A stretch of DNA of 64,000 nucleotides from an uncultured Acidobacteriota bacterium. Its GTDB lineage: Bacteria > Acidobacteriota > Vicinamibacteria > Vicinamibacterales > 2-12-FULL-66-21. The notes beneath the pieces were generated by a model. The model was not told the DNA's origin. It saw nothing but the letters and a program-made list of their open reading frames with translations, and did not search any database. The DNA is taken from contig CAVVOD010000003.1 in the NCBI GenBank assembly GCA_963749835.1, positions 976,721 to 1,040,720 on the forward strand, given 5' to 3'. Both the position numbers and the translations under genes were made by a program. Below are positions 1 to 24,237 of this stretch, in pieces (the first letter of the stretch is position 1; each line of letters begins with the position of its first letter).

Positions 1-2606
1 GGATCGATACCGAGGCCGACGACGAGCTCGCCTTTCACCTTCAGCAGGAGATTGACGCGAACATCGCACGCGGCGTCGATCCGGTCGAGGCCCGGCGCGG
101 AGCGCTCGCCAGCCTGGGAGGACTCACGCAGACGACGGAGGCGATCCGCGAGGTGCGGAGGACCTGGGTGGATGCGACGTGGCGCGACGTTCGGCACGGC
201 ATCCGGTCGCTCCGCGCCACGCCGGCGTTCACGGTCGTCGCGCTTGCGGTGTTGACACTGAGCATCGGCGCATCAACGGCGATCTTCTCCGTCGTGGACG
301 CAGTGGTCCTCCGCGGCCTGCCGTTCCCTGAAGCGGACCGACTCGTGGCCGTGGGTGAGCGGAACATCAAGGGAGGATCGGCCAGCGAACCGGACCTCGT
401 CGCGCCCCAGAATTTCACCGACTGGCGTAAGCAGCAGACGGTGTTCACCGACCTCGCAGCCATCGGGTACGCCAGCGTCAGTCTGCGGTCCGAGGCCGGC
501 CAGGAGCCGGAGACGCTCGAAGCCCAGGCGGTCACGGCCGGCTTCTTCCCGGTGCTTGGAATCGCGCCGATCCTCGGACGGACGTTCACCGCGGACAACG
601 AAGTGGAGGGACGGTCTCGCGTCGCCGTGATCAGCTACAGCCTCTGGCAGCGGCGATTCGGCGGAGCACCGGATGTGATCGGGCGTTACCTTCCGGGTCA
701 GCGTGTGGATTTCGAGATTCTCGGGGTGATGCCACCGTCGTTCGCGTATCCGGTTGGCGCAACGCGCCCCACCGAGGTGTGGCTGCCGAACGTGTTCCGG
801 CCTGAAGACCGTAAGCGTGCCAACGAGTTCTCGTATCGTCTGCAGGTCATCGGGCGCCTTCGTGACGGCACGTCAATCGAACAGGCGCAGGCGCAGATGG
901 GCCTCATCACCGCCGGACTCGCCGCGGAGACTCCGCGGTGGTTCGAGGATCGCGTGGCGAGGGTGGAGGCGCTTCGCGACTACATTGCACGCGGCGTACG
1001 CACGTGGATGCTCATGCTCCTGGCCGCCGTGGGCTTCGTCCTCTCGATCGCATGCGTCAACCTGGCCACGCTCATGCTCGTCCGCGTGAGCGCACGCAGC
1101 CGCGAGCTCGTGATTCGGTCCGCCCTCGGTGCATCACGCGGCGATCTCGTGCGGGGCCTGCTCGTGGAAAGCCTCCTCGTGTCGCTCGGTGGCGCCGTGC
1201 TCGGGGCCTTCGCTGCATGGGTGGGTGTGGAGGCACTGCGCTCCGCAATCCCGCCTGAAGTGCCTCGTGCCGCGGCCATTGCCGTCGATTTGCGCGTGCT
1301 GGCGGCGACCATCGTGATGGCGGTGGTCACCGGACTGATGGTCAGCGCGGCGCCGATCGTCCAGTTCTGGCGGCCGGCTGCCGGGTCTGCCCTCACATAC
1401 GTGATGCGAGCGAGCACGCCGAACCTGACGCACCAGTGGCTCCGGAGTGCTCTCGTCACCCTCGAGGTCGCCCTCGCCGTCGTCCTGCTCGTCGGCTCGG
1501 GGCTGTTCCTGGCAAGCTTTGCGCGCGTGGCACGCGTTGACCTCGGCATCGATACTCGGAACGTCCTGACCGTGCGCGTCCGGCCGCTCGTTGGTCCGCT
1601 GGCGATGTCCTGGGAGCAGGCGCAGCTTCGCAATCGGGGCCTCCTCCGGAACATTCTCGAGCGGGTGCGCACGATACCCGGCGTCGAGGTCGCGGCCTGG
1701 GTCAGCAACGGAGTGCCGCTTCGAGGCGACTTGCGCACGGTGGACTTCGCCATCCCTGGTCGCGCGCTGCCGCGGAACGAGGATCTCGATTGGAACGAGA
1801 TCTCACTGGACTATTTCAGAGCCTTGAAGGTGCCGCTCCTCAAAGGGAGACTCTTTTCCGACGATGACCGCGCGGGCAGTGAGCCGGTCGTGATCATCAA
1901 CGAGGCCGCGGCAAAGAAATATTTCCCCGAAGAGGATCCGCTTGGCCGGATCGTAGAGTTCGTAGGGTTGCGGAGGATCGTCGGCGTGGTCGGCAACATT
2001 CGGCACGACGGGCCGGAAACCGACTGGCGGCGGCAGGGATTCGTGCCGCTCGAGCAGAGCAAAGCCGTCGGTGCGACGCTCATCCTCCGACTGTCGCGCA
2101 ACACCAGCGAAGTCCTGCCCGCCGTGAAGTCGGCGATCTGGTCCGACTTCCCGGGGCTGGCGCTTCCCGACATTCAGACGCTGTCGCAGTACCTGAACAT
2201 GCTCATCGCTCAGCGCCGATTCAACATGCTCCTGCTCAGCGTCTTCGGCCTGCTGGGTATCGTGATCGCCTGCGTCGGCATCTACGGCGTGATGGCCTAT
2301 GTCGTGGTGCTGCGGACGCAGGAGATAGGGATCCGCATGGCGCTTGGAGCCATGCCCGGTGCCATTCTACGGTCGGTGCTGGGGAGGGCCGCGGTCTACC
2401 TCGCAGGCGGGCTCACGATCGGACTGACCGCCGCGTGGATGTTGAGCGCGCTCGTCTCCGGCCTTCTCTTCCAGATCCAGCCGCACGACCCATGGGTCTA
2501 TGTCGGCGTGGCTGCCTCGCTCGTGGCGACGGGCGTGATCGCCGCGTTCATTCCCGCGCGCCGCGCCTCGCGCGTCGATCCGCTCGTCGCCCTGCGCCTG
2601 GAGTAG
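1..2606 (+). CDS. MacB/FtsX-like ABC permease of the acidobacterial duplicated orphan permease (ADOP) type; 5' end lies outside the window
   Basis: ORF track gives 153..2606, but the same frame stays open back to nt 3 (IDTEADDELAFHLQQEIDANIARGVDPVEARRGA...). This is the helical leader typical of this family. Two FtsX-type membrane bundles. C-terminus IPARRASRVDPLVALRLE matches the other three paralogues in the window. Confidence 0.85.
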   Translation, partial: IDTEADDELAFHLQQEIDANIARGVDPVEARRGALASLGGLTQTTEAIREVRRTWVDATWRDVRHGIRSLRATPAFTVVALAVLTLSIGASTAIFSVVDAVVLRGLPFPEADRLVAVGERNIKGGSASEPDLVAPQNFTDWRKQQTVFTDLAAIGYASVSLRSEAGQEPETLEAQAVTAGFFPVLGIAPILGRTFTADNEVEGRSRVAVISYSLWQRRFGGAPDVIGRYLPGQRVDFEILGVMPPSFAYPVGATRPTEVWLPNVFRPEDRKRANEFSYRLQVIGRLRDGTSIEQAQAQMGLITAGLAAETPRWFEDRVARVEALRDYIARGVRTWMLMLLAAVGFVLSIACVNLATLMLVRVSARSRELVIRSALGASRGDLVRGLLVESLLVSLGGAVLGAFAAWVGVEALRSAIPPEVPRAAAIAVDLRVLAATIVMAVVTGLMVSAAPIVQFWRPAAGSALTYVMRASTPNLTHQWLRSALVTLEVALAVVLLVGSGLFLASFARVARVDLGIDTRNVLTVRVRPLVGPLAMSWEQAQLRNRGLLRNILERVRTIPGVEVAAWVSNGVPLRGDLRTVDFAIPGRALPRNEDLDWNEISLDYFRALKVPLLKGRLFSDDDRAGSEPVVIINEAAAKKYFPEEDPLGRIVEFVGLRRIVGVVGNIRHDGPETDWRRQGFVPLEQSKAVGATLILRLSRNTSEVLPAVKSAIWSDFPGLALPDIQTLSQYLNMLIAQRRFNMLLLSVFGLLGIVIACVGIYGVMAYVVVLRTQEIGIRMALGAMPGAILRSVLGRAAVYLAGGLTIGLTAAWMLSALVSGLLFQIQPHDPWVYVGVAASLVATGVIAAFIPARRASRVDPLVALRLE

Positions 2607-2618
2607 CCCTGGAAAGTC

Positions 2619-4925
2619 CTACTGCGTCGAACGCGTCCTCGAGAGCAGCGGACCGAATGCGGGTGGCGGCACCCGATGATGCGTGGCCGATTCGTACGCC
2701 GATGCCGCTTTGATCACGCTGGCGTCACTGCCCGGCCCTGACCAGAACATCATGCTGATCGGCATCGGATTGGGCAGCCTCGACTCCACCTGCCCCGTCA
2801 CCATGACGTAAGCCTTCTTGTCCGGCGAGAGGACGTACTGCGGGTCATACGTGATCTGGGTGTAGCCGGCGGGCACGTCCATCTCGGGCCCGCCCAGCAG
2901 GGCCGTGAACGCCGTGCAGCAACTGATCGTCGGGCGATCGTTCACCGGGGGCTCGCCGGCATATCCCAGCTTGTACGGCGCCGTCGTCTGCTCCGGGTTG
3001 ACGAAGACGTCGATGTTGTTCTCGTACATCACCTTGAGAATCACCATCCGCAGAACCGACTGCATCTTCATGTAACTGACGCTGTCGGGATCCGCCCGCG
3101 GATCCTGATCCGCGATGGCGTTCGTGGCGGCGGCCCGCTGCGCCTCGCTCTCCCACTTCGCGTGCGCTACCCAGGTGGCCCAATCCTTCACGCGGGTGTC
3201 GCCTCGTTCGGCGAGGTACTTGTTGACCGCAAACGGACTGCGCGGATTCCCGAGGCGGCTGCTGATGCGCCGCAGCGTGATCTTCTCGGACAGAGGCGCT
3301 TTCCCCAGCGCCAGCGCGACGGCATAGTCCACCGAGGTGACGTCCCACCCCGGGACGGCGAATTCGAGCTCACCGGAAGGGGTCTTCTGCCAGAAGTACT
3401 CCGGTACGTTGTGCGGCAGGATCTCGGCGAACGCCTGCTGGAACGTGTACTTCATGTTCGGCACCGCCGGGTCGTCCTTGTACAGCGGGTCCACCGACTC
3501 GACGAGCTCCGCGCCGAGCTTGTCCCGCAGGACGGCCTTGATCTCCTTGTCGATCTGGTCGCTGATCGCGGTGTCGTTCCTCGTGTGCTTCACCATGAAC
3601 TCACGGGCGATGCCGACACGCATGCCCTTGAGCGGCATGTTCTTCACGTCCTTGTTCCCCACGACAAAGCTCGCGTAGGGCTCCTTCGGAATCAGTGACT
3701 TTGGAATCGCGGTGAACATGTCCGCGGATTCGTAGCCCTTGATCGCATCCAGGACCGAGACCGCATCCATGACCGTGCGGCAGTGAAGACCGGCCCTGTC
3801 GCCAGCCCCTTTGCCGGTCTCGCCACCGTCCATCAGGATCCCCTTGGTCGTCAGCAGATTGACGACGTTGTTCCTGGACGCCGGCCCCTTGCAGGACGCG
3901 GAGCTCTGCTCACAGACCGAGCAGGCCACCAGGTTGGCGGCGACGGAGACGCCGGATCCGTTGCTGGTGCCGCGCGGCACCCGTTCCGTGTCGTACGGAT
4001 TGCACGTCTGGCCGCCCCACAGTCCGTACATCAGATTGCCGTCGGGCAGTACCGACGTCGCTTTCGCCGGACCGGTGGACGTGGGACCGCCGATAGCGTT
4101 GGCGGTCGCGACCGCGTAGATGATGGCGCCTTTCTTTCGCAGCTCTGCGACATCGGGCGAATCGACCTTCGGGACGTCCATCGCGAAGTTGACGTCGTTG
4201 CCGCCGGTGGCGCGCATGTCCTTCGCGTCGTACCAGTTCTTGATCGAGAAGACGGTGCAGTACATCGGCAGCTTTGCCAGATCGGGTTTGGTGCCGTACT
4301 GCTTGTCGAGCTCCGCCGCGCGTTCGAGTGCGTCGGGCTGCTTCCGGAACTCCTCACACACCGCCGGCGCACCCGCAGGCAGCGGCCCTGCGGAGGGGGC
4401 CTTGTCGAAGTCCCCCTTGCAGGTGACCGATCGCTCGCCGCGGATGTTGAGCGTCTCGAGCGCGTTCACCTGACCGGCGTTCGGGATGCCGACCCGCATG
4501 CCGAACTGCTGCTGCACGCCGGGGTCCGAGATCATCGGTTCCATCCGGCCAAGCTCGAGCGGCGGTCCGGAGTAGTCGCGATAGTTGGGAAACACGCTCG
4601 ACACAGGCACGGTCTTCGTGGGGAACGTGATCCCGAAACCGGCGCGCACCGCCCCGGTCGCTTCAGGAATCGGCGCGCCATCGGCCGTGACGAGCGCGGT
4701 GCACGTGCCGTTGTAGGCCTTCGCCCGGTCGATATACGCCTGGACCACGCCCTGACAGGTCGCCTGGCCGGACGTGATGGCGTTGTGTACGTCCGCGATC
4801 GTGCTTTCCTCGACGCGAAACCGGCCCTGTGCCGACGTCCCACGTACGAGCAGCGCGAGCACGGCGACGGACACCATCAATGCCGAGCCGTACCTCATCC
4901 CTCGAGTCTTTGCTGTCGTTGTCAT
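2619..4925 (-). CDS. Secreted divergent amidase-signature family protein, long form (paralogue A)
   Basis: 768-aa ORF with signal peptide (ALMVSVAVLALLVRGTSAQG). Aligns by eye to the canonical amidase at 7255..8871. Lys region is FSIKNWYD vs VVLKDQMD. cis-Ser region is RGTSNGSGVSVAA vs GGSSGGTGAAVSA. Nucleophile region is EQSSASCKGPASRN vs QEGFASIRRPSTWN. Extra ~160-aa Cys-containing insertion and a long C-terminal extension. Confidence 0.8.
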   Translation of the reverse strand: MTTTAKTRGMRYGSALMVSVAVLALLVRGTSAQGRFRVEESTIADVHNAITSGQATCQGVVQAYIDRAKAYNGTCTALVTADGAPIPEATGAVRAGFGITFPTKTVPVSSVFPNYRDYSGPPLELGRMEPMISDPGVQQQFGMRVGIPNAGQVNALETLNIRGERSVTCKGDFDKAPSAGPLPAGAPAVCEEFRKQPDALERAAELDKQYGTKPDLAKLPMYCTVFSIKNWYDAKDMRATGGNDVNFAMDVPKVDSPDVAELRKKGAIIYAVATANAIGGPTSTGPAKATSVLPDGNLMYGLWGGQTCNPYDTERVPRGTSNGSGVSVAANLVACSVCEQSSASCKGPASRNNVVNLLTTKGILMDGGETGKGAGDRAGLHCRTVMDAVSVLDAIKGYESADMFTAIPKSLIPKEPYASFVVGNKDVKNMPLKGMRVGIAREFMVKHTRNDTAISDQIDKEIKAVLRDKLGAELVESVDPLYKDDPAVPNMKYTFQQAFAEILPHNVPEYFWQKTPSGELEFAVPGWDVTSVDYAVALALGKAPLSEKITLRRISSRLGNPRSPFAVNKYLAERGDTRVKDWATWVAHAKWESEAQRAAATNAIADQDPRADPDSVSYMKMQSVLRMVILKVMYENNIDVFVNPEQTTAPYKLGYAGEPPVNDRPTISCCTAFTALLGGPEMDVPAGYTQITYDPQYVLSPDKKAYVMVTGQVESRLPNPMPISMMFWSGPGSDASVIKAASAYESATHHRVPPPAFGPLLSRTRSTQ

Positions 4926-4936
4926 CGTAAGGTGCC

Positions 4937-7243
4937 CTACTGGGTTGAACGCGTTCTGGCGAGCAGCGGACCGAATGCCGGCGGTGGCACCCGGTGATGC
5001 GTGGCCGATTCGTACGCCGATGCCGCTTTGATCACGCTGGAATCACTGCCCGGTCCTGACCAGAACATCATGCTGATCGGCATCGGGTTGGGCATGCGTG
5101 ACTCGACGTCCCCGGTGACCTCGAGGTAGGTCTTCTTGTCGGGCGACAACGCATACTGCGGGTCGTAGCTGATCTGCGTATAGCCGGCGGGCACGTCCAT
5201 CTCCGGCCCGCCCAGCAGGGCCGTGAAGGCCGTGCAGCAGCTGATCGTGGGACGGTCGTTTACTTCCGGCTCGCCGGCGAATCCCAGCTTGTAGGGGGCC
5301 GTCGTCTGCTCCGGGTTGACGAAGACGTCGATGCTGTTCTCATACATCACCTTGAGAATCACCATTCGCAGAACCGCCTGCATCTTGAGGTAGCTGACGG
5401 TATCCGGTTCCGCGCGCGGATCCTTGTCGGCAATCGCGTTCTCGGCGCCGGCGCGCTGCGTGTCGTTCTCCCATTTCGTGTTCGCCACGAAGCTTGCCCA
5501 GTCCTTGACCCGCGAGTCTCCGCGTTCGGCGAGGTACTTGTTGAGCACGAACGGGCTTCGCGGGTTCCCCAGGCGGCCGCTGATGCGTCGCAGCGTGAGC
5601 TTCTCTGACAGGGGCGCCTTCCCCATCGCCAGCGCGACGGCATAGTCAACAGAGGTCACGTCCCACCCGGGGACGGCGAACTCGAGCTGGCCGGAGGGCG
5701 TCTTCTGCCAGAAGTACTCCGGCACGTTGTGCGGCAGGATCTCGGCAAACGCCTGCTGGAACGTGTATTTCATGTTGGGGACTGTCGGGTCGTCCTTGTA
5801 CATCGGGTCCACCGACTCGACGAGCTCGGCGCCGAGCTTGTCCCGCAGCACGGCCTTGATCTCTTTGTCGATCTGGTCGCTGATCGCGATGTCGTTCTTC
5901 GTGTGCTTCACCATGAACTCGCGGGCGATGGCGACGCGCATGCCCTTGAGCGGCATGTTCTTCACGTCTTTGTCAGCGACGAGCACGCTGGCAAAAGGCT
6001 CTTGCGGAATCAGCGACTTCGGGATGGCGGTGAACATGTCACCGGACTCGTAGCCTTTGATGGCATCGAGCACCTGCACGGCGTCCGGGACCGTGCGGCA
6101 GTGAATCCCGGCCCGATCGCCGGCATTCTTGCTGCCGACGCCGCCGTCCATGATCAGCCCCTTGGTGGTGAGGAGGTTGACGACGCCGTTACGGGACGCG
6201 GGTCCCTTGCAGGACGCGGAACCTTGTTCGCAGATGGAGCACGATGCCAGGCTGGCCGCGACCGACACGCCAGACCCGCCACTCGTGCCTCTCGGCTCCC
6301 GAACGGTATCGTACGGATTGCAGGCCTGGCCCCCCCACTGCGCGTATTTGAGATTGCCGAACGGCATCACGGTCTTCGCCTTGGCAGGTCCGGTCGACGA
6401 TGGGCCGCCGACGTTGTCGGCTGTGGCGATCGCGTAGATGATCGCCCCCTTCTTCCGCAGCTCGGCGATGTCTGGCGAATCGACCTTCGGCACGTCCATC
6501 GCGTAGTTGACGTCGTTGCCCCCGGTGCCGCGCATGTCCTTCGCGTCGTACCAGTTCTTCAGCGAGAAGACGGTGCAGTACATCGGCAGCTTCGCCAGAT
6601 CGGGCTTGCTGCCGTACTGCTTGTCCAGTTCCGCGGCGCGTTCGAGTGCGTCCGGCTGCTTCCGGAATTCCTCGCACACCGCCGGTGCCCCCGCGGGCAG
6701 CGGCCCGGCGGACGGCGCCTTGTCGAACTCTCCCTTGCAGGTGACCGATCGCTCCCCGCGGATGTTGAGGGTTTCCAGCGCATTCAGCTGCCCGGCGTTC
6801 GGGACCCCGACGCGCATGCCGTACTGCTGCTGCACGGTGGGATCCGAGATCGTCGGCTCCATCCGGCCGAGCTCGAACGGCAGTCCGGCGTACTCGCGAT
6901 AGTTCGGGAACACGCTCGACACCGGCACTGTCGCCGTGGGGAACGTCATCTTCGAACCTGCACGGACAGCACCTGTCGCCGCAGGTATCGGCGCGCCATC
7001 CGCGGTCACGAGTGCCGTGCACGTGCCGTTGTAGGCCTTCGCCCGGTCGACATACGCCTGGACCACGGCCTGGCACGTGGTCTGTCCGGACTTGATGGCG
7101 TTCTGCACGCCGGCAATCGTGGTTTCCTCGACACGGAACGGGCCCTGCGCCGACGCGCCGCGCGGCAGGGACACGAGTCCCGCGACCGAGACCGCCAACC
7201 CCGCCAGTGCCCAATGGCGTCGAATCATCGTGATGGTCATCAT
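4937..7243 (-). CDS. Secreted divergent amidase-signature family protein, long form (paralogue B)
   Basis: 768-aa ORF, collinear with 2619..4925 and roughly 85% identical by eye. Signal peptide LAGLAVSVAGLVSLPRGASAQG. Motifs FSLKNWYD, RGTSGGSGVSVAA, EQGSASCKGPASRN. Confidence 0.8.
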   Translation of the reverse strand: MMTITMIRRHWALAGLAVSVAGLVSLPRGASAQGPFRVEETTIAGVQNAIKSGQTTCQAVVQAYVDRAKAYNGTCTALVTADGAPIPAATGAVRAGSKMTFPTATVPVSSVFPNYREYAGLPFELGRMEPTISDPTVQQQYGMRVGVPNAGQLNALETLNIRGERSVTCKGEFDKAPSAGPLPAGAPAVCEEFRKQPDALERAAELDKQYGSKPDLAKLPMYCTVFSLKNWYDAKDMRGTGGNDVNYAMDVPKVDSPDIAELRKKGAIIYAIATADNVGGPSSTGPAKAKTVMPFGNLKYAQWGGQACNPYDTVREPRGTSGGSGVSVAASLASCSICEQGSASCKGPASRNGVVNLLTTKGLIMDGGVGSKNAGDRAGIHCRTVPDAVQVLDAIKGYESGDMFTAIPKSLIPQEPFASVLVADKDVKNMPLKGMRVAIAREFMVKHTKNDIAISDQIDKEIKAVLRDKLGAELVESVDPMYKDDPTVPNMKYTFQQAFAEILPHNVPEYFWQKTPSGQLEFAVPGWDVTSVDYAVALAMGKAPLSEKLTLRRISGRLGNPRSPFVLNKYLAERGDSRVKDWASFVANTKWENDTQRAGAENAIADKDPRAEPDTVSYLKMQAVLRMVILKVMYENSIDVFVNPEQTTAPYKLGFAGEPEVNDRPTISCCTAFTALLGGPEMDVPAGYTQISYDPQYALSPDKKTYLEVTGDVESRMPNPMPISMMFWSGPGSDSSVIKAASAYESATHHRVPPPAFGPLLARTRSTQ

Positions 7244-7254
7244 GAACGTCCGTT

Positions 7255-8871
7255 CTACTGGATGCTGGCGGTGTTTGCCGACGTCAACGGCGGCGTGGTC
7301 TTTGGCGGACGGCGGTGCTTCGTGGCCTGCTCGTACGCATACGCCAGCTTGATCATCGTCGGCTCGCTGTACGGCCTGCCGAAGAACGTGATGCCGACGG
7401 GGAGTCCCTGGGGCGTGAAACCGGCAGGCACGACCATCGAGGCGACGTAAACCAGGAACGTGTTGAGGTGAGGCGCTCCCTTCTGGTTGGTGTAGGGAGG
7501 ATTGATCCCGTCGCGAATCAGCGTGGGCGTGTGCTCCACGGCCTTGTGGACTATCGCATCGAGCTTGTGGTCCGCCATGACTTTCATCACCGCGATCATC
7601 AGCTCGTCACGGGCGACGAGCTCAGACGGTCCTTCCGTCGGCTGTCTGTCCGAGGGACGCCTCATGATCTTTCCGTAGTCGGGAGAGTTGCGCACGTCGG
7701 CCATGGTCTTGAACTTCGACGTGGGGTTTCTCGCGAAGTAGACGGCCGCTCCGTCGCCCGCGCCTTCGCCGCCGCCGGTCCCGCGCCTCGCCAGCAGCTC
7801 GTTCAGGCGGGGAATCACAATCGGATCGACGATCACGGCCCCGGCCGTCTTCAGTTCGCCGACCGCCTTGTCGAAGACGGCGGTGACAGTCTTGAAGTCC
7901 TCGGAGTCTGGCTCGGTCGTGTACCCCATGGGTTCACGCAGAATCCCAATCCGCGCCCCCTTGAGTCCGTTCTTGTCGAGCGACTTCGTGTAGGTGTCCG
8001 GGATGTGCCCCACGCCGAGTGCCGTCACCGGGTCATCGGGGTCGTACCCGACCATGACGTCGAGCAGCCTGGCCATGTCCGTGACCGTCCGGGTCATCGG
8101 CCCGAGCGAGCCGCGGCGCGACGGCCAGCCGGCCCACACGCCCGAGCGGCTGACGAGGCCCGGCGTCGGACGCATGCCGACGATGCTGTTCCAGGTGGAG
8201 GGGCGTCGAATCGAGGCGAATCCCTCCTGCCCGACGCCGATGGTCGCGAAGTTCGCCGACACCGCGGCGCCGGTGCCACCCGACGAACCGCCGACGGTCC
8301 GCTCCGGGTCGTACGGGTTACGGCTGACGCCGAAGAGCGACCCATAGGAGTCGCCGCCGCCCATCTCGCCCAGCGTGACTTTCGCGAGAACGATGGCTCC
8401 CGCCTTTTTGAGCTTGTCGGTGACGAAGGCGTCGCGCACGGGGACGTTGTCCTTCATCACGACCAATCCGAGCGTCGTGGGAATGCCCGCGACGTCCATC
8501 TGGTCCTTGAGGACAACCGGAATGCCATGCAGCGGCCCGACGGGTCCGGATCGCTTGTAGGCCTCGTCCAGCGCCCCGGCTTCGTCCAGTGCTTTCGGAT
8601 TGATGGTGATGACCGAGTTGATCTTCGGGCCGTTCGTGTCGTACGCCTCGATGCGATTGAGATAGGCGCGGACCAGCGCCCGAGACGTCAACCGGCCGGC
8701 CTTGAACTCGGCCTGGACGTCCTCGATCGTCGCATCCACCAGCTCGAAGGGCTTCTGCTGCGCCTCGACCGCCGGCCCACGCCTGACGCCAAGTGCGGCG
8801 CAGAACGCCAGTACGCCCAGGGCCGTCCATATCCGGGCGCTCGTGACGCCGGTCATTCGCTGCTTTGTCAC
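7255..8871 (-). CDS. Secreted amidase (canonical amidase-signature enzyme)
   Basis: ORF track gives 7255..8994, but its first ~40 codons just translate the heptamer repeat (MLRATCYVLRAT...). A GTG at 8871 lies 7 nt after AAGGAGA and gives signal peptide (M)TKQRMTGVTSARIWTALGVLAFCAALG. Classic signature GGSSGGTGAAVSANFATIGVGQEGFASIRRPS and catalytic Lys context IPVVLKDQ. Confidence 0.85.
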   Translation of the reverse strand: MTKQRMTGVTSARIWTALGVLAFCAALGVRRGPAVEAQQKPFELVDATIEDVQAEFKAGRLTSRALVRAYLNRIEAYDTNGPKINSVITINPKALDEAGALDEAYKRSGPVGPLHGIPVVLKDQMDVAGIPTTLGLVVMKDNVPVRDAFVTDKLKKAGAIVLAKVTLGEMGGGDSYGSLFGVSRNPYDPERTVGGSSGGTGAAVSANFATIGVGQEGFASIRRPSTWNSIVGMRPTPGLVSRSGVWAGWPSRRGSLGPMTRTVTDMARLLDVMVGYDPDDPVTALGVGHIPDTYTKSLDKNGLKGARIGILREPMGYTTEPDSEDFKTVTAVFDKAVGELKTAGAVIVDPIVIPRLNELLARRGTGGGEGAGDGAAVYFARNPTSKFKTMADVRNSPDYGKIMRRPSDRQPTEGPSELVARDELMIAVMKVMADHKLDAIVHKAVEHTPTLIRDGINPPYTNQKGAPHLNTFLVYVASMVVPAGFTPQGLPVGITFFGRPYSEPTMIKLAYAYEQATKHRRPPKTTPPLTSANTASIQ

Positions 8872-8933
8872 AGGGTCATCTCCTTGAAATTTCTCAACCG
8901 ACGAACACGAACCACCCAGCACATCGCACTCAT

Positions 8934-8998
8934 CACGTCGCACGTCGCACGTCGCACGGGTAGCACGTAGCACGTAGCACGTAGCACGTAGCACGTAG
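8934..8998. repeat. Tandem heptanucleotide array (CACGTCG)x3 then (CACGTAG)x5
   Basis: Read directly: cacgtcg cacgtcg cacgtcg cacgggtag cacgtag x5. Lies between the TBDR stop (9004) and the amidase start. Confidence 0.95.
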
Positions 8999-9003
8999 TT
9001 GGG

Positions 9004-12000
9004 CTACCAGAGCAGCTTCGCCCCCAGTTGCACCTGCCGCGCGGACGTGCGCGTGTTGGTGATCACGCCGACGTTGGCGGTCAGGTTTCCGCGATCGTCG
9101 AAGATGGTGGTTGCCGGTGTCGCGAAGTTGGCGCGGTTGAGCGCGTTGAACATTTCGACGCGCAGCTGCGCCGTGGCCCGGCCCAGCCGCTGGGCCTTGA
9201 CGAGCACCAGGTCGAGCGTCGCTTGGCCAGGAGAGATGAGCGAGTTCCGACCGAGGTTGCCGAGGACCCCGTCAGCGGGAAACGCGAAGCACTCGGTCTT
9301 GATGTAGTGATTCACGTTGCCCGGATTGGTCAGCGTCGCGCAGGCCGGACTCATGATGCGATCGGGCGGCTGCCCGAGGCCGCTGCCGGTCGTGTCCGCC
9401 TTGGATCCGGCTCGATCGCCGTTCAGCGCGACCGTGAACGGAAATCCGCTCTGGGCGCGATAGATCCCTGAAATCTGCCATCCCTCCGCCAGGTTCCGCA
9501 TCAGCCCCGTGAGTGCCTTCGAGTAGGGAATTTCGAACACGACGCTGCCGACGAAGTTGTGGCGCACGTCGTAGTTGGACAGACCACGGGCGAGCTCAGG
9601 CAGCAATGGCGTGGCGACCGAGAACGCGCTCTCGTATCCGGTTCCGGCGGCGACCGAGGAAATCGACGATCCGGTATCGATGCTCTTGCTCCACGTGTAC
9701 GACGTTTGGGTCTGGAGACCGCGGCTCAGGTTGCGCTTCAGCACGGTCTGGAGGCCGTGGTAGTTCGAGTTGGCGTTCCATGTGACGGTTGTATTGATGG
9801 CCGAGAAGTTCGGATTGAGGACGGTGCTCGTCGCGCGCGGTTCATACACCCAGCGCCCGTCCACCTTCCTCGGGATCACCGTGTTCATGTTCCGCTCGAC
9901 GAGCGGCAGGTTCATGCCACGTGCGCCCACGTAGCCGACATCCGCAGTCCAGGCGCCGAACTGCCGCTGGACGTCCACGTTCCACTGGGTCCGGTAGGCG
10001 CGGGGAGGATTCGGATCCACCCACGCCGTCCGCAGGTTCTGCACGCCGAGGAGGGAATACGCGCCGGAGGGAAACGACCCGGCCGGAGGATTCAGCGCCA
10101 CACCCTGGAGGAAGAACGGCGTCGACCGGTTCAACGGCGTTTCGTAGAGATAGAGAAACGGCAGGACGTCGAAGACTCCGAACCCGCCCCGCACGGCGGT
10201 CTTGTGATCGCCGAAGGGGTCCCAGGCAACCCCGATGCGCGGAGCAAAGTTCTTCAGCGTCGGATTGCTGTCGTGGATCTTGCCGCCGACGGTGACGGTG
10301 GGATCGGTCAGGTTCTTGAGCAGCGCGACCTTGTTGTTGACTTCCGTCGGGATGGTCATCATCTCGTAGCGCAGCCCGAGGTTCAGCGTCAGCGTGTTCG
10401 TCCAGCGGATATCGTCCTGGACATACGCGCCAACGAGCGTCTCCCGCATGCTGCGCACGGTGTCCGACTGCGGATAGAGCGCGCCGAAGCGGGACGGCCT
10501 GTTCTGCAGGAACGTGGCGAGCGTGCCGAAGCTGAAGGATCCTCCCGTGGCGTTCGGGGTGTCGAAGTTGTTCTGCATGTGTTCCACGTTGAAGCCGACC
10601 TTCATGGAATGCTTTCCGCGGAGCACGAACAGGTCCTGGCTGCCCTGGTAGGAGGTGAACTCCAGCGTGGCGTAGTCGACCGCGCCAGGGCCGCCGCCGG
10701 CCCCCGCGAGCCCCGGCACCGAGATCGCTCCGATCGGAAGCCCCGGTATGTAGCCGAGTGAGGTGTCGGTGAGCGCCGGGTTCATCGTGTCGATGATGCT
10801 GCCGCTCTTCGATACCGTGCGCGAGATGCCGAAGCGGCTCACGCTCACGATCGCCGAGCCGAACCCGTGCGAGTACTCGGACATCAGCACCCGCCGCTGC
10901 GACTTGTCGGCGAGCTGCTTCATGAGAAACGCGTCCGGCTGTTCGACGTTCGCGTCGTCGAACAGCACCGTGCCGCTCAGGCTGCCGGTCGTCGTCAGCT
11001 TGTGATCGAGCTTGACGAGCCCGTAGTCGCCGCGCGATTCCTTGTTTCGGACGGCGTAGTACTGGCCGGTGTCGCCGTTGCCGAGCAGTTCACCATTCGG
11101 CAGGGGATACAGCGCCAGCGCCCTGGCGATCTGAGGATCGACCGCCACGGTGCCGGCGGCAAGCCGGCCCTCACGGGCAGCAGGCGACAACGTCGTGGAA
11201 ACCGTGGTCTGCCCGAGAATCTCGCGAAGGCCCTCGTAGTCGCCGAACCAGAAGGTACGGTTCTTCACGAGCGGTCCGCCGAGCGCAATGCCGTACTGGT
11301 TCCTGTTGAATGGCGGGGGATCGCTGCCGCGGTCGAAGTAGTCTTTCGAGTCCATCCGGCTGTTCCGGTTGAACTCGAACACCGTGCCCCGAATCTGGTT
11401 CGTGCCCGACCGCGTGATCGCGTTGACGACGCCACCGGACGTCCGCCCGTACTCCGCCGAGTAGGAGTTCGTCAGCACCGAGAACTCGGCCACCGCCTCG
11501 ACGCCGAGATTCGTGCCGAGGGCGTTTCCGGGCGTCGTGTTGGCGTAGTCGTTCACACCAATGCCGTTCAGTCGATAGTTGTTCTCCGACGGACGCGCGC
11601 CGGCGACCGCCATCTTCATCCCGTTGCCCGATCGTGTGCCCCCGCTGTTGCCGACGCCGACGACGCCGGGCTGCAGCATGGCCAGCTGCGTCCAGTCCCG
11701 GCCGTTGAGCGGCAGCTCGCGGATCGTGGTGCCGCTGACGTTGTGGCGGAGCGTCGCCGACGCCGTCTCGATGCGGGGCGCGTCGCCCGACACGACGACG
11801 TTCTCGTTGACGCTGCCCACCTTCATCTCGAAATCCACCGCGGCCTCGCCGCCGACCGTCAGCGTGAGGCCCTTTCTCGTCTGGGTGTTGAAGCCGTCGA
11901 AGGTGACCGTGACGTCATAGGTGCCGGGCAGCAGATTCGGGGCGCTGTAGAAGCCCCCCTCATTCGTGATGACGCTGGTGACGACGCCCGTGGCGACGTT

Positions 12001-12165
12001 CGTGATGGCCACGCTCGCATGCGGCAACGTCGACGCGCTCTGATCGCGCACGCGGCCGGTGAAAGTTCCGCCGACGGTCTGCGCTTCGAGAACTGTTGAA
12101 GCCAGCAACACGAGACACATGGAGAGGCTCGAGCACCGCGATGCCCTCGCACGGCTAGTCGACAT
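9004..12165 (-). CDS. TonB-dependent receptor with N-terminal carboxypeptidase-regulatory-like domain (Oar-type)
   Basis: 1068-aa ORF. Internal ATG at 12165 gives signal peptide MSTSRARASRCSSLSMCLVLLASTVLEAQT. Beta-sandwich motif GFYSAPNLLPGTYDVTVTFDGF. Plug region IRELPLNGRDWTQLAMLQPGV. Long barrel ending QLGAKLLW. Confidence 0.85.
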   Translation of the reverse strand: MSTSRARASRCSSLSMCLVLLASTVLEAQTVGGTFTGRVRDQSASTLPHASVAITNVATGVVTSVITNEGGFYSAPNLLPGTYDVTVTFDGFNTQTRKGLTLTVGGEAAVDFEMKVGSVNENVVVSGDAPRIETASATLRHNVSGTTIRELPLNGRDWTQLAMLQPGVVGVGNSGGTRSGNGMKMAVAGARPSENNYRLNGIGVNDYANTTPGNALGTNLGVEAVAEFSVLTNSYSAEYGRTSGGVVNAITRSGTNQIRGTVFEFNRNSRMDSKDYFDRGSDPPPFNRNQYGIALGGPLVKNRTFWFGDYEGLREILGQTTVSTTLSPAAREGRLAAGTVAVDPQIARALALYPLPNGELLGNGDTGQYYAVRNKESRGDYGLVKLDHKLTTTGSLSGTVLFDDANVEQPDAFLMKQLADKSQRRVLMSEYSHGFGSAIVSVSRFGISRTVSKSGSIIDTMNPALTDTSLGYIPGLPIGAISVPGLAGAGGGPGAVDYATLEFTSYQGSQDLFVLRGKHSMKVGFNVEHMQNNFDTPNATGGSFSFGTLATFLQNRPSRFGALYPQSDTVRSMRETLVGAYVQDDIRWTNTLTLNLGLRYEMMTIPTEVNNKVALLKNLTDPTVTVGGKIHDSNPTLKNFAPRIGVAWDPFGDHKTAVRGGFGVFDVLPFLYLYETPLNRSTPFFLQGVALNPPAGSFPSGAYSLLGVQNLRTAWVDPNPPRAYRTQWNVDVQRQFGAWTADVGYVGARGMNLPLVERNMNTVIPRKVDGRWVYEPRATSTVLNPNFSAINTTVTWNANSNYHGLQTVLKRNLSRGLQTQTSYTWSKSIDTGSSISSVAAGTGYESAFSVATPLLPELARGLSNYDVRHNFVGSVVFEIPYSKALTGLMRNLAEGWQISGIYRAQSGFPFTVALNGDRAGSKADTTGSGLGQPPDRIMSPACATLTNPGNVNHYIKTECFAFPADGVLGNLGRNSLISPGQATLDLVLVKAQRLGRATAQLRVEMFNALNRANFATPATTIFDDRGNLTANVGVITNTRTSARQVQLGAKLLW

Positions 12166-12788
12166 AGGCAGTCCCAGTCCTCTCTTGATGCTGATCGCAT
12201 GACAGCTCACGCAGGAATCAGTTCAGATGTGCGGGTTGACGCGCGGTCTTTGAAAGCCCCTTAGCAACCGACGTACCGAGCAGGCGATCAGTTGACCGGA
12301 GAGCGTCATTACCGAACGATTCGCAGCGAGGAGTGTCGTGGCGTGGTTGCGTGAGCCGCCGAGAGCGCATGCAGAGCGGGAGGATGGCGACAGGTTTGTC
12401 GCCGTTCGCAGGATGCAGCGCCAAGAATGGTCGACGCGCACGATCGGAAGCGAGTGACGCGACGGCTCGTGTCGCGCACGATCGCGGAGCTCACGCGATC
12501 GGCGACACGCACGATGCGAGCGAATGACAGACGCCTCGCCGGCGCGGGACGTGAGCGCTATCGCGTGGCTTTGTTCACTCGTTGCTGGTCACAACCGCCA
12601 GTGATCAGAATGACTGGAGCCAGGATGCTCCGGCACGTCAGCGGCGGTTGGATCTGCAGCGGCGCGCGGCGCATTCGGCGGAATCGGTCGCCGGCACTCG
12701 GCATATCGCAAGGCGCAACCCCACCGGGCTGCCAGCCGATTCCTGACGTGTCCGGCGGTGATCCTGTCTCGTGGCAGGCCCGAAAACA

Positions 12789-12813
12789 ATGGCGCAAAGA
12801 GGCATTGCGCCAT
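12789..12813 (-). terminator. Perfect 9-bp stem hairpin followed by TGTTTTCG on the minus strand (terminator- or attenuator-like)
   Basis: atggcgcaa-agaggca-ttgcgccat. Minus-strand 3' flank is tgttttcg. Sits inside the long non-coding leader upstream of the TBDR. Confidence 0.3.
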
Positions 12814-12990
12814 CCTTGTTCCCGTTTGCGCGCAGGGTTCACAAATGTTTCTTCCGCGCGAACGCCAGAAGCGAAGGCAGTTCGTGATGCGCGAGAGCGC
12901 CGCGACTGACGGTCCGTCGGTTGCAGACGGAATCCCAGTTGCTGCGCCGCCCTTTACGCCGGTGCGCGTCTGCGGCAAGCTGAAGACGCC

Positions 12991-13281
12991 ATGTTCGTCA
13001 TCGAGCTCACCTACAAGGCCAGCCTTGCGCAAATCGACGCGAGCATGGCCGCTCATGTCAGGTTCCTCAAGAAGTACTACGCGGCCGGCAACTTCCTGGT
13101 CTCCGGTCGAAAGGTCCCGAGAGAGGGGGGAATCATCCTGGCCGTCGGCCGGAGCCGGGAGGACATCGAGGCCATCATGCGCACGGACCCGTTCTGCGAG
13201 CGCGGGCTTGCCGACTTCCGGGTAATCGAGTTCCGGGCGAGCCAGCGAGCCGACGACATCCAGAAACGCATCGACGGGTAG
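12991..13281 (+). CDS. YciI-like (DGPF-domain) small protein
   Basis: 96-aa ORF MFVIELTYKASLAQIDASMAAHVRFLKKYYAAGNFLVSGRKVPREGGIILAVGRSREDIEAIMRTDPF... This is the typical YciI family pattern. Confidence 0.75.
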   Translation: MFVIELTYKASLAQIDASMAAHVRFLKKYYAAGNFLVSGRKVPREGGIILAVGRSREDIEAIMRTDPFCERGLADFRVIEFRASQRADDIQKRIDG

Positions 13282-13291
13282 CGGCCGTTCC

Positions 13292-13321
13292 GCGCCTCAG
13301 CGCCGTGCGAACTTGAGGCGC
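13292..13321. terminator. 8-bp inverted repeat between convergent genes (possible bidirectional terminator)
   Basis: gcgcctca-N14-tgaggcgc between the yciI-like stop and the ADOP stop. Large loop and no clear U-tract. Confidence 0.25.
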
Positions 13322-13363
13322 CTCACTCTTGGAGAAGCAACCGTCCGAACCGGAGCGAGCCCA

Positions 13364-16042
13364 TCATTCCTGTCGCAGCGCGACCATCGGGTCCATGTTC
13401 GCGGCGCGGTACGCGGGCAGGACGACGGCCAGCGAGGTGGTGACCAGGAAGGCGGCAGCCGCAGCCGCCATGACCGCGGGATCGACGGTCGCGATGCCAA
13501 AGAGCTGCGACTGGACGAGGCGCATCAACGCCAGTGAACCCAGGAGGCCTGCCGCCAGCCCGCCGGCCATCATTCCGAAGAGCTCTTTCAGCACGAGCGA
13601 GACGAGCGCGTGCCGCCGCGCGCCGAGGGCGGTGCGGATTCCAAGCTCCTTCGTACGACGCACGACCGAGTAGCTCAAGAGACCAAACAAGCCAATCGCG
13701 ACCAGCACGAGTCCAAGCAGCGCAAACACACCGCCGACCCCTGCCAGCAGTTTCTCCTTCAACAGCGTATTGCCGATGAGCGTTTCGAGCGTCGTCACCT
13801 CGACGACATGGAGCCCGGGCCCGGCGGTCCTGGTCTCTTGCTCCACCAGCCGCATCACCGAACCCGGATCGAGTGTCGATCGCACGTACACCGTGAACAG
13901 CCTGGGCGGCTTCATAGGAAAATAGACCACCGGCTGCAGTCCATCCCGCAGGTCCGAGTAAAAGGCATCCGCCGAAACGCCGACGATCACGTGGCGTGCG
14001 TTGTCCGTTCGTCGTCGAAATTCCTTTCCGAGAACCGGTGCCCCGCCGAAGTACCTCCGCGCGAACGCACGGTTGACGATCGTCGGGATGGGCTGAACGC
14101 CGTCGTTGTCGCGGACGTCGAAGTCGCGTCCCTCCAGGAGGGGAGTCCTGAGTGTGGCGAAGTAACCCGGTGAAACCCGATAGAACGTCTCCTGGCGCTC
14201 CGAAGGCGGCCTTCCCTCGAGGACGATCTGCTCAGCGCGCCTGCTGTCGCCGAAGATCGCCCACCAGCCGACGGCAGCCCCCTGCACCGTGGGCAGCATG
14301 GACACCTGGCGTTGCAGCTGTTGCGTCAACTGCAGGCCGTCCTGTTTGGGACCCAGATCGCTCCGCATCGTCAGCACCGTGACGTGTGCCGGATCGAACC
14401 CCATGCCCACTGAGAACAGTTTCTGAAGGCTGAAGAGAAAGCCCGCCCCAGCCACGACGAGGCAGAACACGAATGCGACCTGCACGGATACGAAGAGCCG
14501 CCCGAGAAAGACCCTGCGGGCTTCCCCGCTTCCAGGGGTGACCGCCGGGATGGCTCGGCCTCCCGCGCCATGCCACGCCGGCAGGACGCCGACAATCAGG
14601 GCCGTTACCGTGCACAGACCGGCGCCGAAGAGCAGGACACGAGTGTCCATCGCGAATGCGAACCGGACCGGATCGCTGTCCGTCGACAGCAGCGTGACGA
14701 TCCAGGGAGCGGTGGCGCTCGCGAACACCCAGCCCAGGATGCCCGCAAGTCCTGAGAGCAACAGGCTCTCTGTCAGCAGCTGGCGCACCAGGCGCCCACG
14801 GCTGGCGCCGAGCGACGTGCGGAGCGACATCTCCGGCGATCGTGCGGCCGCGCGTGAAAGGAGCAGGCTGGCGACGTTCGCACAGGCGACGAGCAGAATG
14901 GCCGCCGCCACACTCCACACGATCCATATCGGCCGCGAGAAGCTGCGCTGGAAATCGGACACGCCGATTCCGCCGGGGCGTACCCGGATGCCCCTGTCGC
15001 CGAAGGCCTTCAGGGCCGCTGCCGGCATCGCCGCATTCTGCGCGATCATGTCCTGCTGGCGATCGTGAAACACCGGCTGCAGCCGCGCCTGGAGCTGCTC
15101 ACGACTGGTCCCGCCGTCAAGGCGCCCGACGATGCGGAACAGGTTCGCGGCGGGGCTCGAGAACACACCAGGGTCGAACGTCATGACGGGCACCCACACA
15201 TCGACGAACTTCCCGGGTTCGACGCCGAAGAACCCCTCCCGGGCGACGCCGACGATGTGATGCTGCCTGTTGTTGAGGGTGATCGGCCGCCCAAGGACAC
15301 CGGGATCCGCATTGAAATGGCGCTGCCAGTACTCGAAGCTGAGCACGGCGGTACGCGGAACGCCAGGGTCGCGATCGTCGTTGCTGGAGAACAGGCGGCC
15401 CAGTGCAGGCATGACGCGAAGCGTCTCGAACGCTTCGCCGGACACGAACTGCTGCCTGACTCTCTCGATGGGAGCCGTCGGATCCGCGCCTTGCGCCTCG
15501 GCGCGATCCGTGGGACCGAAGACGACCAGGCGCGCTGAATCTCCAGCGGCCGCGCGAAACTGGAGGTAGAGGGGGTAGCTGAAGGACTCGGTCTCGCCCG
15601 CCGCAGGCGTCGCGCCAGCTTCGAGGGCGGGCGCGGCCAGCGTGAACACGCGCTTTGCATCCGGCACCGGCAGCGGCCGCAGCATGGCGGCATCGACGAT
15701 CGCGTAGATCGCCGTGTTCGCGCCGATTGCCAGGCTGAGCGACAACAGGGCCGTGATCGTGAACGCCGGGCTCCTGCGCATCGTGCGCCAGGCATAGCGG
15801 ACGTCCTGAATCGTGCTCTCGAGCCCTGTCCACAATCGGATCTCCCGGCTCTGTTCGCGCACCCGGGTGACGCTGCCGAACGCCGTCAGCGCCCGCCGCC
15901 GTGCCTCGGCGGCGGTCAGGCCCTGCTCACGGAAGGCCGCTGAGCGCCGCTCCAGGTGATCCTGGATTTCGTCCTCCAGCGACTCGTCGAGCGGTCGCGT
16001 GTGCAGCGCGTTCTTCAGCCGTGAGAACCAGGACATGGCCAA
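13364..16042 (-). CDS. ADOP-type MacB/FtsX-like permease
   Basis: 892-aa ORF. Leader MSWFSRLKNALHTRPLDESLEDEIQDHLERRSAAFREQGLTAAEARRRAL. Duplicated FtsX bundles. C-terminus LPAYRAANMDPMVALRQE. Confidence 0.9.
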   Translation of the reverse strand: MAMSWFSRLKNALHTRPLDESLEDEIQDHLERRSAAFREQGLTAAEARRRALTAFGSVTRVREQSREIRLWTGLESTIQDVRYAWRTMRRSPAFTITALLSLSLAIGANTAIYAIVDAAMLRPLPVPDAKRVFTLAAPALEAGATPAAGETESFSYPLYLQFRAAAGDSARLVVFGPTDRAEAQGADPTAPIERVRQQFVSGEAFETLRVMPALGRLFSSNDDRDPGVPRTAVLSFEYWQRHFNADPGVLGRPITLNNRQHHIVGVAREGFFGVEPGKFVDVWVPVMTFDPGVFSSPAANLFRIVGRLDGGTSREQLQARLQPVFHDRQQDMIAQNAAMPAAALKAFGDRGIRVRPGGIGVSDFQRSFSRPIWIVWSVAAAILLVACANVASLLLSRAAARSPEMSLRTSLGASRGRLVRQLLTESLLLSGLAGILGWVFASATAPWIVTLLSTDSDPVRFAFAMDTRVLLFGAGLCTVTALIVGVLPAWHGAGGRAIPAVTPGSGEARRVFLGRLFVSVQVAFVFCLVVAGAGFLFSLQKLFSVGMGFDPAHVTVLTMRSDLGPKQDGLQLTQQLQRQVSMLPTVQGAAVGWWAIFGDSRRAEQIVLEGRPPSERQETFYRVSPGYFATLRTPLLEGRDFDVRDNDGVQPIPTIVNRAFARRYFGGAPVLGKEFRRRTDNARHVIVGVSADAFYSDLRDGLQPVVYFPMKPPRLFTVYVRSTLDPGSVMRLVEQETRTAGPGLHVVEVTTLETLIGNTLLKEKLLAGVGGVFALLGLVLVAIGLFGLLSYSVVRRTKELGIRTALGARRHALVSLVLKELFGMMAGGLAAGLLGSLALMRLVQSQLFGIATVDPAVMAAAAAAFLVTTSLAVVLPAYRAANMDPMVALRQE

Positions 16043-16080
16043 CTCTCTTTCGTGTCGTCCCGAACCACGCGGTCAGGGCA

Positions 16081-16410
16081 TCAGGCATGACGCAGCACGC
16101 GCGCCACCCCGTTCGCCAGACTGTTCCAGCGCTCGGTTTCGGCCGCCACCTGCTTCCTGCCCGCGCGGGTCATCTCGTACACGCGCGCCCGGCGCTTGTT
16201 CTCGGTGACGACGGACTCGGCCGTGATCCAGCCGGCCTCCTCCATCCGGTGCAGCGCCGGATAGAGCGAGCCTTCGTCGATCCGCAGCGCGTCCGCCGAC
16301 AACGACTGGATGGCCGACGCAATGGCGTAGCCGTGCAGCGGTCCCCGCCGGCCGAGGATGGTCAGGACGAGCAGGTCGAGTGTCGTATGAACGGAGTTCG
16401 ATGAGCCCAT
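16081..16410 (-). CDS. PadR-family transcriptional regulator (partner of the ADOP gene)
   Basis: 109-aa ORF with LDLLVLTILGRRGPLHGYAIASAIQ...EGSLYPALHRMEEAGWI...RRARVYEMTRAGRKQ. Lies 38 nt upstream of the permease. Confidence 0.9.
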   Translation of the reverse strand: MGSSNSVHTTLDLLVLTILGRRGPLHGYAIASAIQSLSADALRIDEGSLYPALHRMEEAGWITAESVVTENKRRARVYEMTRAGRKQVAAETERWNSLANGVARVLRHA

Positions 16411-16417
16411 ATACTTA

Positions 16418-16436
16418 GTTGGCTAGGGTAGCCAAC
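16418..16436. promoter_or_regulatory. Perfect palindrome GTTGGCTA-GGG-TAGCCAAC just upstream of padR (candidate operator)
   Basis: Read directly, 8 nt upstream of the padR start codon. PadR proteins commonly autoregulate via palindromic operators. Confidence 0.45.
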
Positions 16437-16474
16437 GTATGGAACCATCAAAGAGGCCGCCGTGTCAAGGCGCG

Positions 16475-19120: not shown

Positions 19121-19160
19121 GGATGCGCGGAGTATACACGGGAGCTGCCGATTTCCTGGC

Positions 19161-24221: not shown

Positions 24222-24237
24222 ATCGGGACACCGCCAA

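Follow-up and report, generated by a model that had tools for sequence, protein, structure and literature searches.

Tandem genes for oversized, cysteine-rich amidase-signature proteins next to a TonB-dependent-type outer-membrane protein gene in an uncultured Vicinamibacterales bacterium

The DNA analysed here, called the window throughout, is a stretch of 64,000 nucleotides (nt) from an uncultured Acidobacteriota bacterium (GTDB lineage Bacteria; Acidobacteriota; Vicinamibacteria; Vicinamibacterales; 2-12-FULL-66-21; GenBank assembly GCA_963749835.1, contig CAVVOD010000003.1, positions 976,721 to 1,040,720 of the forward strand). On its minus strand lies a row of genes that encode, in this order, an outer-membrane protein resembling TonB-dependent receptors, an amidase similar to Pam of Stenotrophomonas maltophilia, and two oversized ('XL') amidase-signature (AS) proteins, copy B and copy A, with gaps of 11 nt between the three amidase genes (Table 1). 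AS amidases such as FAAH, GatA and the nylon and urethane hydrolases have been studied heavily; literature searches on the XL branch found nothing.

The sequence-only reading, an earlier annotation made by a model from the DNA letters and the open reading frames (ORFs), had described two collinear ORFs of 768 codons, about 85% identical, with stretches of identical nucleotides at the 3' ends, and both descriptions hold. In BLASTP 646 of 768 residues were identical (84%) with 0 gaps over the full length, whereas the genes share 83% of their nucleotides (90, 92 and 68% at codon positions 1, 2 and 3). The longest identical run measures 46 nt (gene nt 2204-2249), and the 45-nt string quoted in that reading lies inside it and was located exactly twice (0 occurrences expected). 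The peptide motifs FS[IL]KN, RGTS[NG]GSG, SASCKGPAS, AKAYNGTCTALV, CS[VI]CEQ[SG]SASC and ISCCTAF, together with the conserved cysteines that had been pointed out, were all found in both ORFs.

Table 1. Coordinates of the gene row and of features within copies A and B (positions in the window)
Feature	Copy A or single feature	Copy B	Strand	Basis and remarks
Copy A, XL amidase	2619..4925		-	ORF, 768 aa; Pfam Amidase 89.8 bits; last gene of row
Copy B, XL amidase		4937..7243	-	ORF, 768 aa; Pfam Amidase 90.2 bits; 11 nt upstream of A
Stretch of 45 nt identical in A and B	2678..2722	4996-5040	+	Two exact occurrences
Signal peptide (residues 1-33, ...TSAQ|G)	4827..4925	7145-7243	-	Charged n-region, hydrophobic stretch, A-x-A-Q site
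Insertion 1 (residues 73-196; pieces ~73-147 and ~162-196)	4338..4709	6656-7027	-	Beta-rich; absent from Pam-like neighbour and canonical profiles
Insertion 2 (residues ~284-299)				MAFFT and hhalign
Insertion 3 (residues ~491-560)				MAFFT and hhalign
Insertion 4 (residues ~690-717)				MAFFT and hhalign
Lys229 codon, catalytic Lys	4239..4241	6557-6559	-	HMMER against 1m21, hhalign
Thr320 codon, cis-Ser position (nucleophile minus 24)	3966..3968	6284-6286	-	Ungapped alignments
Ser344 codon, nucleophile, flanked by Cys338 and Cys345	3894..3896	6212-6214	-	HMMER, MAFFT, hhalign
Codons 251-400, copy-specific catalytic-centre segment	3726..4175	6044-6493	-	Synonymous divergence A-B 1.04; informative sites (see text)
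Canonical Pam-like amidase	7255..8994		-	579-aa ORF, likely ~533-538 aa from a start near 8856-8871; 11 nt upstream of B
TonB-dependent-receptor-like outer-membrane protein	9004..12210		-	CarboxypepD_reg + Plug + OMP_b-brl_4; first gene of row; likely ATG at 12165
Tentative sigma-54-type -24/-12 element, cGGtAC-N5-TTGCt	12263..12278		-	~100 nt upstream of outer-membrane protein start

Family membership, insertions and distribution

Both proteins match the Pfam Amidase profile (PF01425) with scores near 90 bits, where the cut-off is 27, which places them in the AS superfamily; the best matched stretch is limited to residues ~197-476. Regarding the more specific NCBIfam models, none reached its own cut-off with A or B. 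The scores fall short of the Pam type (PRK08137, 109-116 bits versus a cut-off of 534; PRK06828, 96-102 versus 494) and of GatA (TIGR00132, 48-53 versus 481). The PROSITE AS pattern was dropped as a family test; it fails even on the canonical neighbour.

The anatomy of the proteins was taken from a three-way MAFFT alignment of A, B and the canonical neighbour and from an hhalign comparison of 76 family members with 13 canonical amidases, which gave a probability of 100%, E = 5e-53 and 504 aligned columns. Four insertions in the AS core were placed alike by the two methods. The proteins had been thought to exceed usual AS enzymes by ~200 residues and to carry an insertion of ~160 residues after AKAYNG. 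The oversize stands, at ~230 residues in four insertions when measured against the ~538-residue neighbouring amidase; the insertion in question amounts to ~110 residues and comes in two pieces.

An AlphaFold2 model of A, built with 76 homologues, is confident including the insertions (predicted local distance difference test score, pLDDT, 87; predicted template modelling score 0.90), with pLDDT values of 74-95 in insertion 1. A Foldseek search with this model retrieved Tse8, Pam, GatA and FAAH, all with probability 1.0 and template modelling (TM) scores of 0.5-0.79 on the target; target-normalised values were 0.71-0.79 for the leading matches (Tse8 0.71, Pam 0.78-0.79), whereas query-normalised values were only ~0.5. 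An AS alpha/beta fold is accordingly predicted for A and B. Modelled alone, insertion 1 reached a pLDDT of 69 and yielded no Foldseek match better than E = 2.5; since the lone model is poor and has no structural match, the insertion is probably not an independent domain and probably packs on the core.

Among proteins of solved structure, Pam (PDB 1M21, 1M22, 5AC3) was the best sequence match (E = 8e-16). Like A and B it is an exported AS enzyme and shares the C-terminal AYE-AT-HR-PP tail, and a Pam-like gene stands in the same row; A and B differ from it by an identity of ~18% in the structural alignment, the ~230 extra residues, twelve conserved cysteines, a Thr in place of the cis-Ser, and RGTSxGSG in place of GSSSGS. 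The top Foldseek match was Tse8 (E = 1e-26; PDB 6TE4, 6YHV), a type VI effector of Pseudomonas aeruginosa with an AS fold and additions, from which A and B differ by 16% identity, a Sec-type signal peptide and a context without type VI secretion. A preprint reports that Tse8 acts via binding, not hydrolysis (bioRxiv 10.1101/733030). GatA has the AS core in common with the pair, 'GatA family' being a family-level label only; it is cytoplasmic, whereas A and B carry a signal peptide and their genes are surrounded by those for an outer-membrane protein, amidases and permeases, with no gatB or gatC nearby. The closest canonical relative in the locus is the 538-residue amidase of the row (30% identity over 504 profile columns), which likewise has a signal peptide but retains GGSSGG and the Ser at the cis-Ser position and is without the insertions and paired cysteines.

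A word-indexed search returned more than 5,600 related clusters at 90% identity, the best 120 of which comprise proteins of 641-786 residues (116 with at least 730) that are at least 69% identical. An exhaustive search of 50%-identity representatives gave 306 clusters at E <= 1e-30; about five of them are full-length with the whole architecture, and a portion of insertion 1 is missing from shorter relatives of 33-39% identity. The search of species-representative genomes gave 237 matches. The best 80 of these all stem from metagenome-assembled genomes, of Acidobacteriota (Vicinamibacterales, Terriglobia, Bryobacteraceae, Solibacteraceae) and also of Gammaproteobacteria, Rhodospirillaceae and Longimicrobiales. 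The names in the databases are 'amidase family protein' or 'GatA family amidase' only (e.g., HKY20322.1, MFN7936105.1, MBI2816563.1). The proposal of a distinct AS subfamily is borne out by relatives in the thousands, about 740-790 residues long and 52-100% identical, with common insertions and cysteines. The XL family is an uncharacterised, structurally elaborated variant of a well-known enzyme family and is common in environmental genomes.

Catalytic residues, export signals and cysteines

The Ser-cisSer-Lys triad of AS amidases is treated as universal, and every relative studied carries a catalytic Ser at the bridging (cis-Ser) position. In Pam the catalytic residues are Lys123, Ser202 and Ser226 (PMC11732141), which align with Lys229, Thr320 and Ser344 of A and B. 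HMMER placed Lys229 and Ser344 at chain residues 86 and 189 of 1m21, with residues 296-365 of the query free of gaps, and hhalign paired them with K163 and S261, which are invariant in the canonical profile. Thr320 occupies the cis-Ser position because the bridging cis-Ser of Pam sits 24 residues before the nucleophile; the same 320-344 register, ungapped throughout, was found in the alignment with the neighbour, with distant relatives (31-55% identity) and in hhalign. A Ser stands at this position in all 16 canonical amidases from related loci. The Lys and the nucleophile had been picked correctly in the sequence-only reading; its other choice, Ser321, is the second Ser of GGSSGG and not the bridging residue.

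Conservation was surveyed in 181 relatives that span 31-100% identity. Position 320 is held by Thr in 135 of them and by Ser in 46, with no other residue, so that a hydroxyl is conserved there; Ser321 and Ser344 are invariant (181/181), and Lys229 is present in 180. The signature GGSS(S/G)GS (PMC11732141) is replaced by RGTSNGSG in A and RGTSGGSG in B, as had been noticed earlier of the classical motif; more distant relatives of the same branch retain GSSSGSG or GSSGGSG.

The Thr tracks a vicinal pair of cysteines, Cys669-Cys670: 132 sequences have both features, 42 have neither, and there are five exceptions. The branch with Thr320 and Cys669-Cys670 comprises sequences at least 57% identical to A, both window proteins among them. 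A Ser-type XL branch from Vicinamibacterales (related loci L053-L077, ~55% identity) has Ser at position 320 and is without Cys669-670. It is single-copy in the 22-kb loci retrieved, with a TonB-dependent gene adjacent in L057 alone, and the genes that recur beside it either match nothing in Pfam or carry DUF5916.

An N-terminus resembling a signal peptide with an A-x-A-Q site occurs in 56 of 59 anchored family members. In B and in the copies of locus L080 the signal peptide contains a twin-arginine-like T-x-I/T-R-R-x-W/L, whereas A has R-G-M-R; to judge from this motif, some members could be exported pre-folded by the twin-arginine translocation pathway, which bears on where disulfides form.

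Close relatives share twelve cysteines with few or no exceptions. In the 181 sequences they come and go in twos: both members of the pair 57-223 are present in 173 and neither in 6, with one only in 2; the corresponding numbers are 172, 8 and 1 for 335-382, 173, 8 and 0 for 338-345, 172, 8 and 1 for 169-190, and 134, 45 and 2 for 669-670. Cys75 and Cys308 are jointly lost in P0126, P0253 and the canonical neighbour. Such paired gain and loss fits the pattern expected for disulfide partners, and a bond predicted in this way between Cys338 and Cys345 would close the loop that bears the nucleophile. A DsbA/thioredoxin-like gene near the family in two independent loci (inside the four-copy cluster L001 and in one other) points faintly in the same direction. 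The disulfide-stabilised periplasmic folding suggested earlier is thus backed indirectly, by signal peptides, paired cysteines and this gene.

Some of the cysteines might instead form an active-site metal site or a redox switch (Cys169/190/338/345, or the vicinal Cys669-670) and not structural disulfides. This would suit the loss of Cys169, 190, 338 and 345 together in the same eight sequences, the way in which C338-x6-C345 brackets the nucleophile, and the almost perfect concordance of Cys669-670 with Thr320. It is nevertheless unlikely: the remaining cysteines act as simple pairs, the losses of 335-382 and of 75-308 recur in separate clades, the co-losses may stem from a single clade event, and disulfides are usual for exported proteins in the oxidising periplasm.

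Divergence of the two copies

The synonymous divergence (dS) between A and B is 0.58, compared with 0.08-0.09 to their 97-98% identical orthologues in locus L079, and the ratio of non-synonymous to synonymous divergence (dN/dS) is 0.10-0.15 over the seven pairs compared (among them A-B, and A and B each with their orthologues). A neighbour-joining tree places copy 3 of locus L080, which has three copies, as the sister of A and copy 2 as that of B, and gene order agrees. As the copies of L080 pair separately with A and B, the duplication predates the split of these lineages, and the recent duplication that had been proposed is not upheld.

The divergence is a mosaic. In the quartet A, B, X2 and X3, the parsimony-informative sites of codons 251-400 favour orthology 38:7, whereas the count elsewhere is 33:50 (Fisher p = 9e-7; third positions alone, p = 0.001); those of codons 151-250 and 501-550 point the other way, to similarity within the genome, by 17:2. 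Over 150-nt bins chi-square was 40 (permutation p = 5e-5). Between A and B, dS in the flanks was 0.42-0.48 in three of five segments, below the orthologue values there, and 0.54 and 0.61 in the other two. Of 27 residues that are diagnostic of the A or B type and conserved across lineages, 13 lie within residues 276-341; they include N322G adjoining Thr320 and Ser321, S341G in the loop that leads to Ser344, and six positions in or near insertion 2 (loop 291-302). Among tandem copies at other loci, 12 of 14 pairs diverge more in codons 251-400 than elsewhere (ratio above 1), whereas between-locus pairs of similar divergence gave ratios of 0.5-1.0. These sequence patterns are most simply read as gene conversion that acted on the flanks in each genome while the catalytic centre was kept distinct. 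The homogenisation suspected in the sequence-only reading would therefore apply to the flanks and not to codons 251-400.

Gene row, proposed uptake link and function

The first two genes of the row are conserved with the pair. The Pam-like neighbour scores 262 bits over the full Pfam Amidase profile, carries the motifs GGSSGG...FASIRRP, and has 538-residue orthologues in L079 and L080. The ATG of the outer-membrane protein gene is preceded by a conserved sequence resembling a ribosome-binding site, AGAGAGGA. The order outer-membrane protein, amidase, XL gene is also found in L079 and L080, and L002 holds all three gene types; an adjacent gene on the same strand, conserved across genomes, is what a TonB-dependent nutrient-uptake locus should show. 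In L079 (4442-5982) gene calling split the TonB-dependent-type gene into two short ORFs of 268 and 246 aa, which span ~1.5 kb as against ~3.2 kb; the cause is either decay or an assembly error.

Gene context was surveyed in 78 related loci, each including at most 10 kb of flanking sequence; neighbour clusters without Pfam support were ignored, as greedy longest-ORF clustering gave antisense artefacts in high-GC loci (cluster 3). A TonB-dependent gene of the acidobacterial type lies within 10 kb in 23 loci and a Pam-like amidase in 12; two or more XL copies occur in 12 loci and three or more in five. The largest array seen, in L001 (460-14793, on a contig shared with L003), consists of four XL paralogues, 65-71% mutually identical, around one TonB-dependent-type gene and one gene for a 349-aa protein that combines SurA_N with a thioredoxin/DsbA-like part. 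In about ten gammaproteobacterial loci the XL gene occurs with a Plug-domain receptor, in six of them with an extracytoplasmic function (ECF) sigma factor, in four with a FecR-like gene and in four with a molybdopterin oxidoreductase. The receptor pairing in both Acidobacteriota and Gammaproteobacteria means that the link to TonB-dependent uptake spans phyla. In L037, L038, L046, L042, L017 and L023 the XL gene is divergent beside the ECF sigma factor and Plug-domain receptor, within ~6 kb upstream; L037, L038 and L046 add the FecR-like gene and a two-subunit molybdopterin oxidoreductase (MoCoBD + 2Fe-2S). This oxidoreductase may hint at a metabolism of N-heterocycles or aldehydes tied to the amidase.

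The same neighbourhoods raise the question of cargo. Periplasmic cleavage of imported siderophores or metal chelates after TonB-dependent uptake, in place of nitrogen or carbon scavenging, would agree with the adjacency to TonB-dependent receptors in two phyla and with the gammaproteobacterial units of ECF sigma factor, FecR and receptor beside the XL gene, which are typical of iron-complex signalling. It is judged quite unlikely, as siderophore ABC importers, reductases and iron genes are absent among the annotated neighbours (most genes of the related loci being unannotated), the receptor in Acidobacteriota has a CarboxypepD_reg/OMP_b-brl_4 architecture with no cargo assigned, and a heterogeneous nutrient pool is a better match for loci that hold as many as four paralogues in addition to a Pam-like amidase. 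A search of Rfam over positions 1-20000 of the window gave no matches and hence no riboswitch clue to the cargo of the transporter.

Regarding regulation, a tentative sigma-54-type element (GGYAC-N5-TTGCT) is also found upstream of the orthologous outer-membrane protein gene in L079 (~-115), L080 (~-224) and L002 (~-108), and in L080 it has been kept though the surrounding sequence diverged. The strict pattern has a background of 0.01 per kb. The element is missing upstream of the TonB-dependent gene in 19 other such loci, and a loose scan of the whole window showed no enrichment (20 found, 22 expected); the conserved upstream site alone was kept as a lead. By this motif, control of the operon may be enhancer-dependent and possibly nitrogen-linked.

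The row is flanked by MacB_PCD/FtsX permease genes at 153-2606 (+) and 13364-16042 (-), of 817 and 892 aa, an arrangement repeated in L079 together with PadR genes; a 96-aa ORF at 12991-13281 (+) adjoins one of these permease genes, and L079 has an annotated 96-aa YCII gene at that place. Further along, on the minus strand, are a Ser/Thr kinase fused to a PD40 beta-propeller (16475-19120; a similar gene lies near XL amidases in L076), an M20 peptidase (21672-23114), an NHL/BACON repeat protein (24397-27591), a response-regulator-PAS-GGDEF-EAL protein (29770-31899), and ORFs of 494 and 459 aa without a Pfam match (23178-24662 and 27652-29031).

Taken together, A and B are probably active, exported, disulfide-braced AS hydrolases that work in the periplasm on amides brought in by a transporter, and old paralogues of differing specificity. 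In this mechanism the AS core would carry its ~230 extra residues packed onto it and be cross-braced by about six disulfides, with Cys338-Cys345 closing the loop of Ser344, and the proton relay would run Lys229 - Thr320 - Ser344, Thr replacing the usual cis-Ser. The genes would be co-transcribed behind the TonB-dependent-type outer-membrane transporter and the smaller Pam-like amidase, and from such co-transcription an action in the periplasm on imported amide compounds would follow, with cleavage of amide-bearing organics into an acid and either ammonia or an amine. Both old copies would have been kept for different substrate preferences while gene conversion homogenised their flanks. Pam-like ancestry points, by analogy, to peptide or other carboxamides as substrate, and only tentatively do we infer soil amide nitrogen as the resource.

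Several observations weigh against this picture. We know of no characterised precedent for Thr at the cis-Ser position, and full activity is assumed. A transporter gene within 10 kb is absent in more than half of the 78 loci, and 22 of 59 members, B among them, have RR within the first 20 residues. Joint losses of cysteines occurred rarely and cluster on the tree, and partner assignment is ambiguous for Cys169/190/338/345, which were lost in the same sequences. The segment 251-400 was picked after inspection of the data, the binned permutation test being independent of that choice.

A more radical departure would be that A and B are non-catalytic binding pseudo-enzymes on an AS scaffold, as proposed for Tse8, with Thr320 and the rewritten signature abolishing hydrolysis. 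The rank of Tse8 as top structural match, the change of GGSSGG to RGTS[NG]GSG and the Thr itself speak for it; it is nonetheless very improbable in view of Lys229 and Ser344 being kept and position 320 being limited to Thr or Ser over so wide a range of identity, a dN/dS of ~0.1, classical signal peptides, and annotated neighbours that include no type VI secretion genes. That the copies are very recent duplicates, or fully homogenised by concerted evolution, and functionally redundant can practically be set aside, equal length without indels, runs of identity reaching 46 nt and the 17:2 codon blocks being outweighed by dS (0.58 overall, 1.04 in the catalytic centre), a closer L080 counterpart for each copy, the 97-98% identical L079 orthologues and the 27 copy-diagnostic residues conserved across lineages.

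Three features stand out as most unusual: Thr in place of the cis-Ser, a probable disulfide around the nucleophile loop, and a protected active-site segment in a partly homogenised pair. A bolder and rather doubtful extension combines them: a natural Ser-Thr-Lys variant of the AS mechanism with a Cys338-Cys345 clamp, in which Cys669-670 arose together with the Thr, would yield redox-sensitive periplasmic amidases, and their tandem copies, by maintaining distinct active-site cassettes despite conversion, would make up a small array of specificities for amide-nitrogen compounds taken up by the acidobacterial TonB-dependent transporters.

A large environmental branch naturally bridged by Thr, with a probable loop disulfide, would test how strict the AS mechanism is, and the XL amidases would be a new and probably very stable scaffold for biocatalysis. 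The mosaic offers a compact and clear case in which selection appears to keep an active-site segment distinct in two tandem genes that are otherwise homogenised by gene conversion. The conserved pairing with TonB-dependent-type outer-membrane proteins provides a handle on the cargo of the greatly expanded acidobacterial transporters, and on how abundant soil bacteria tap amide-bound organic nitrogen.

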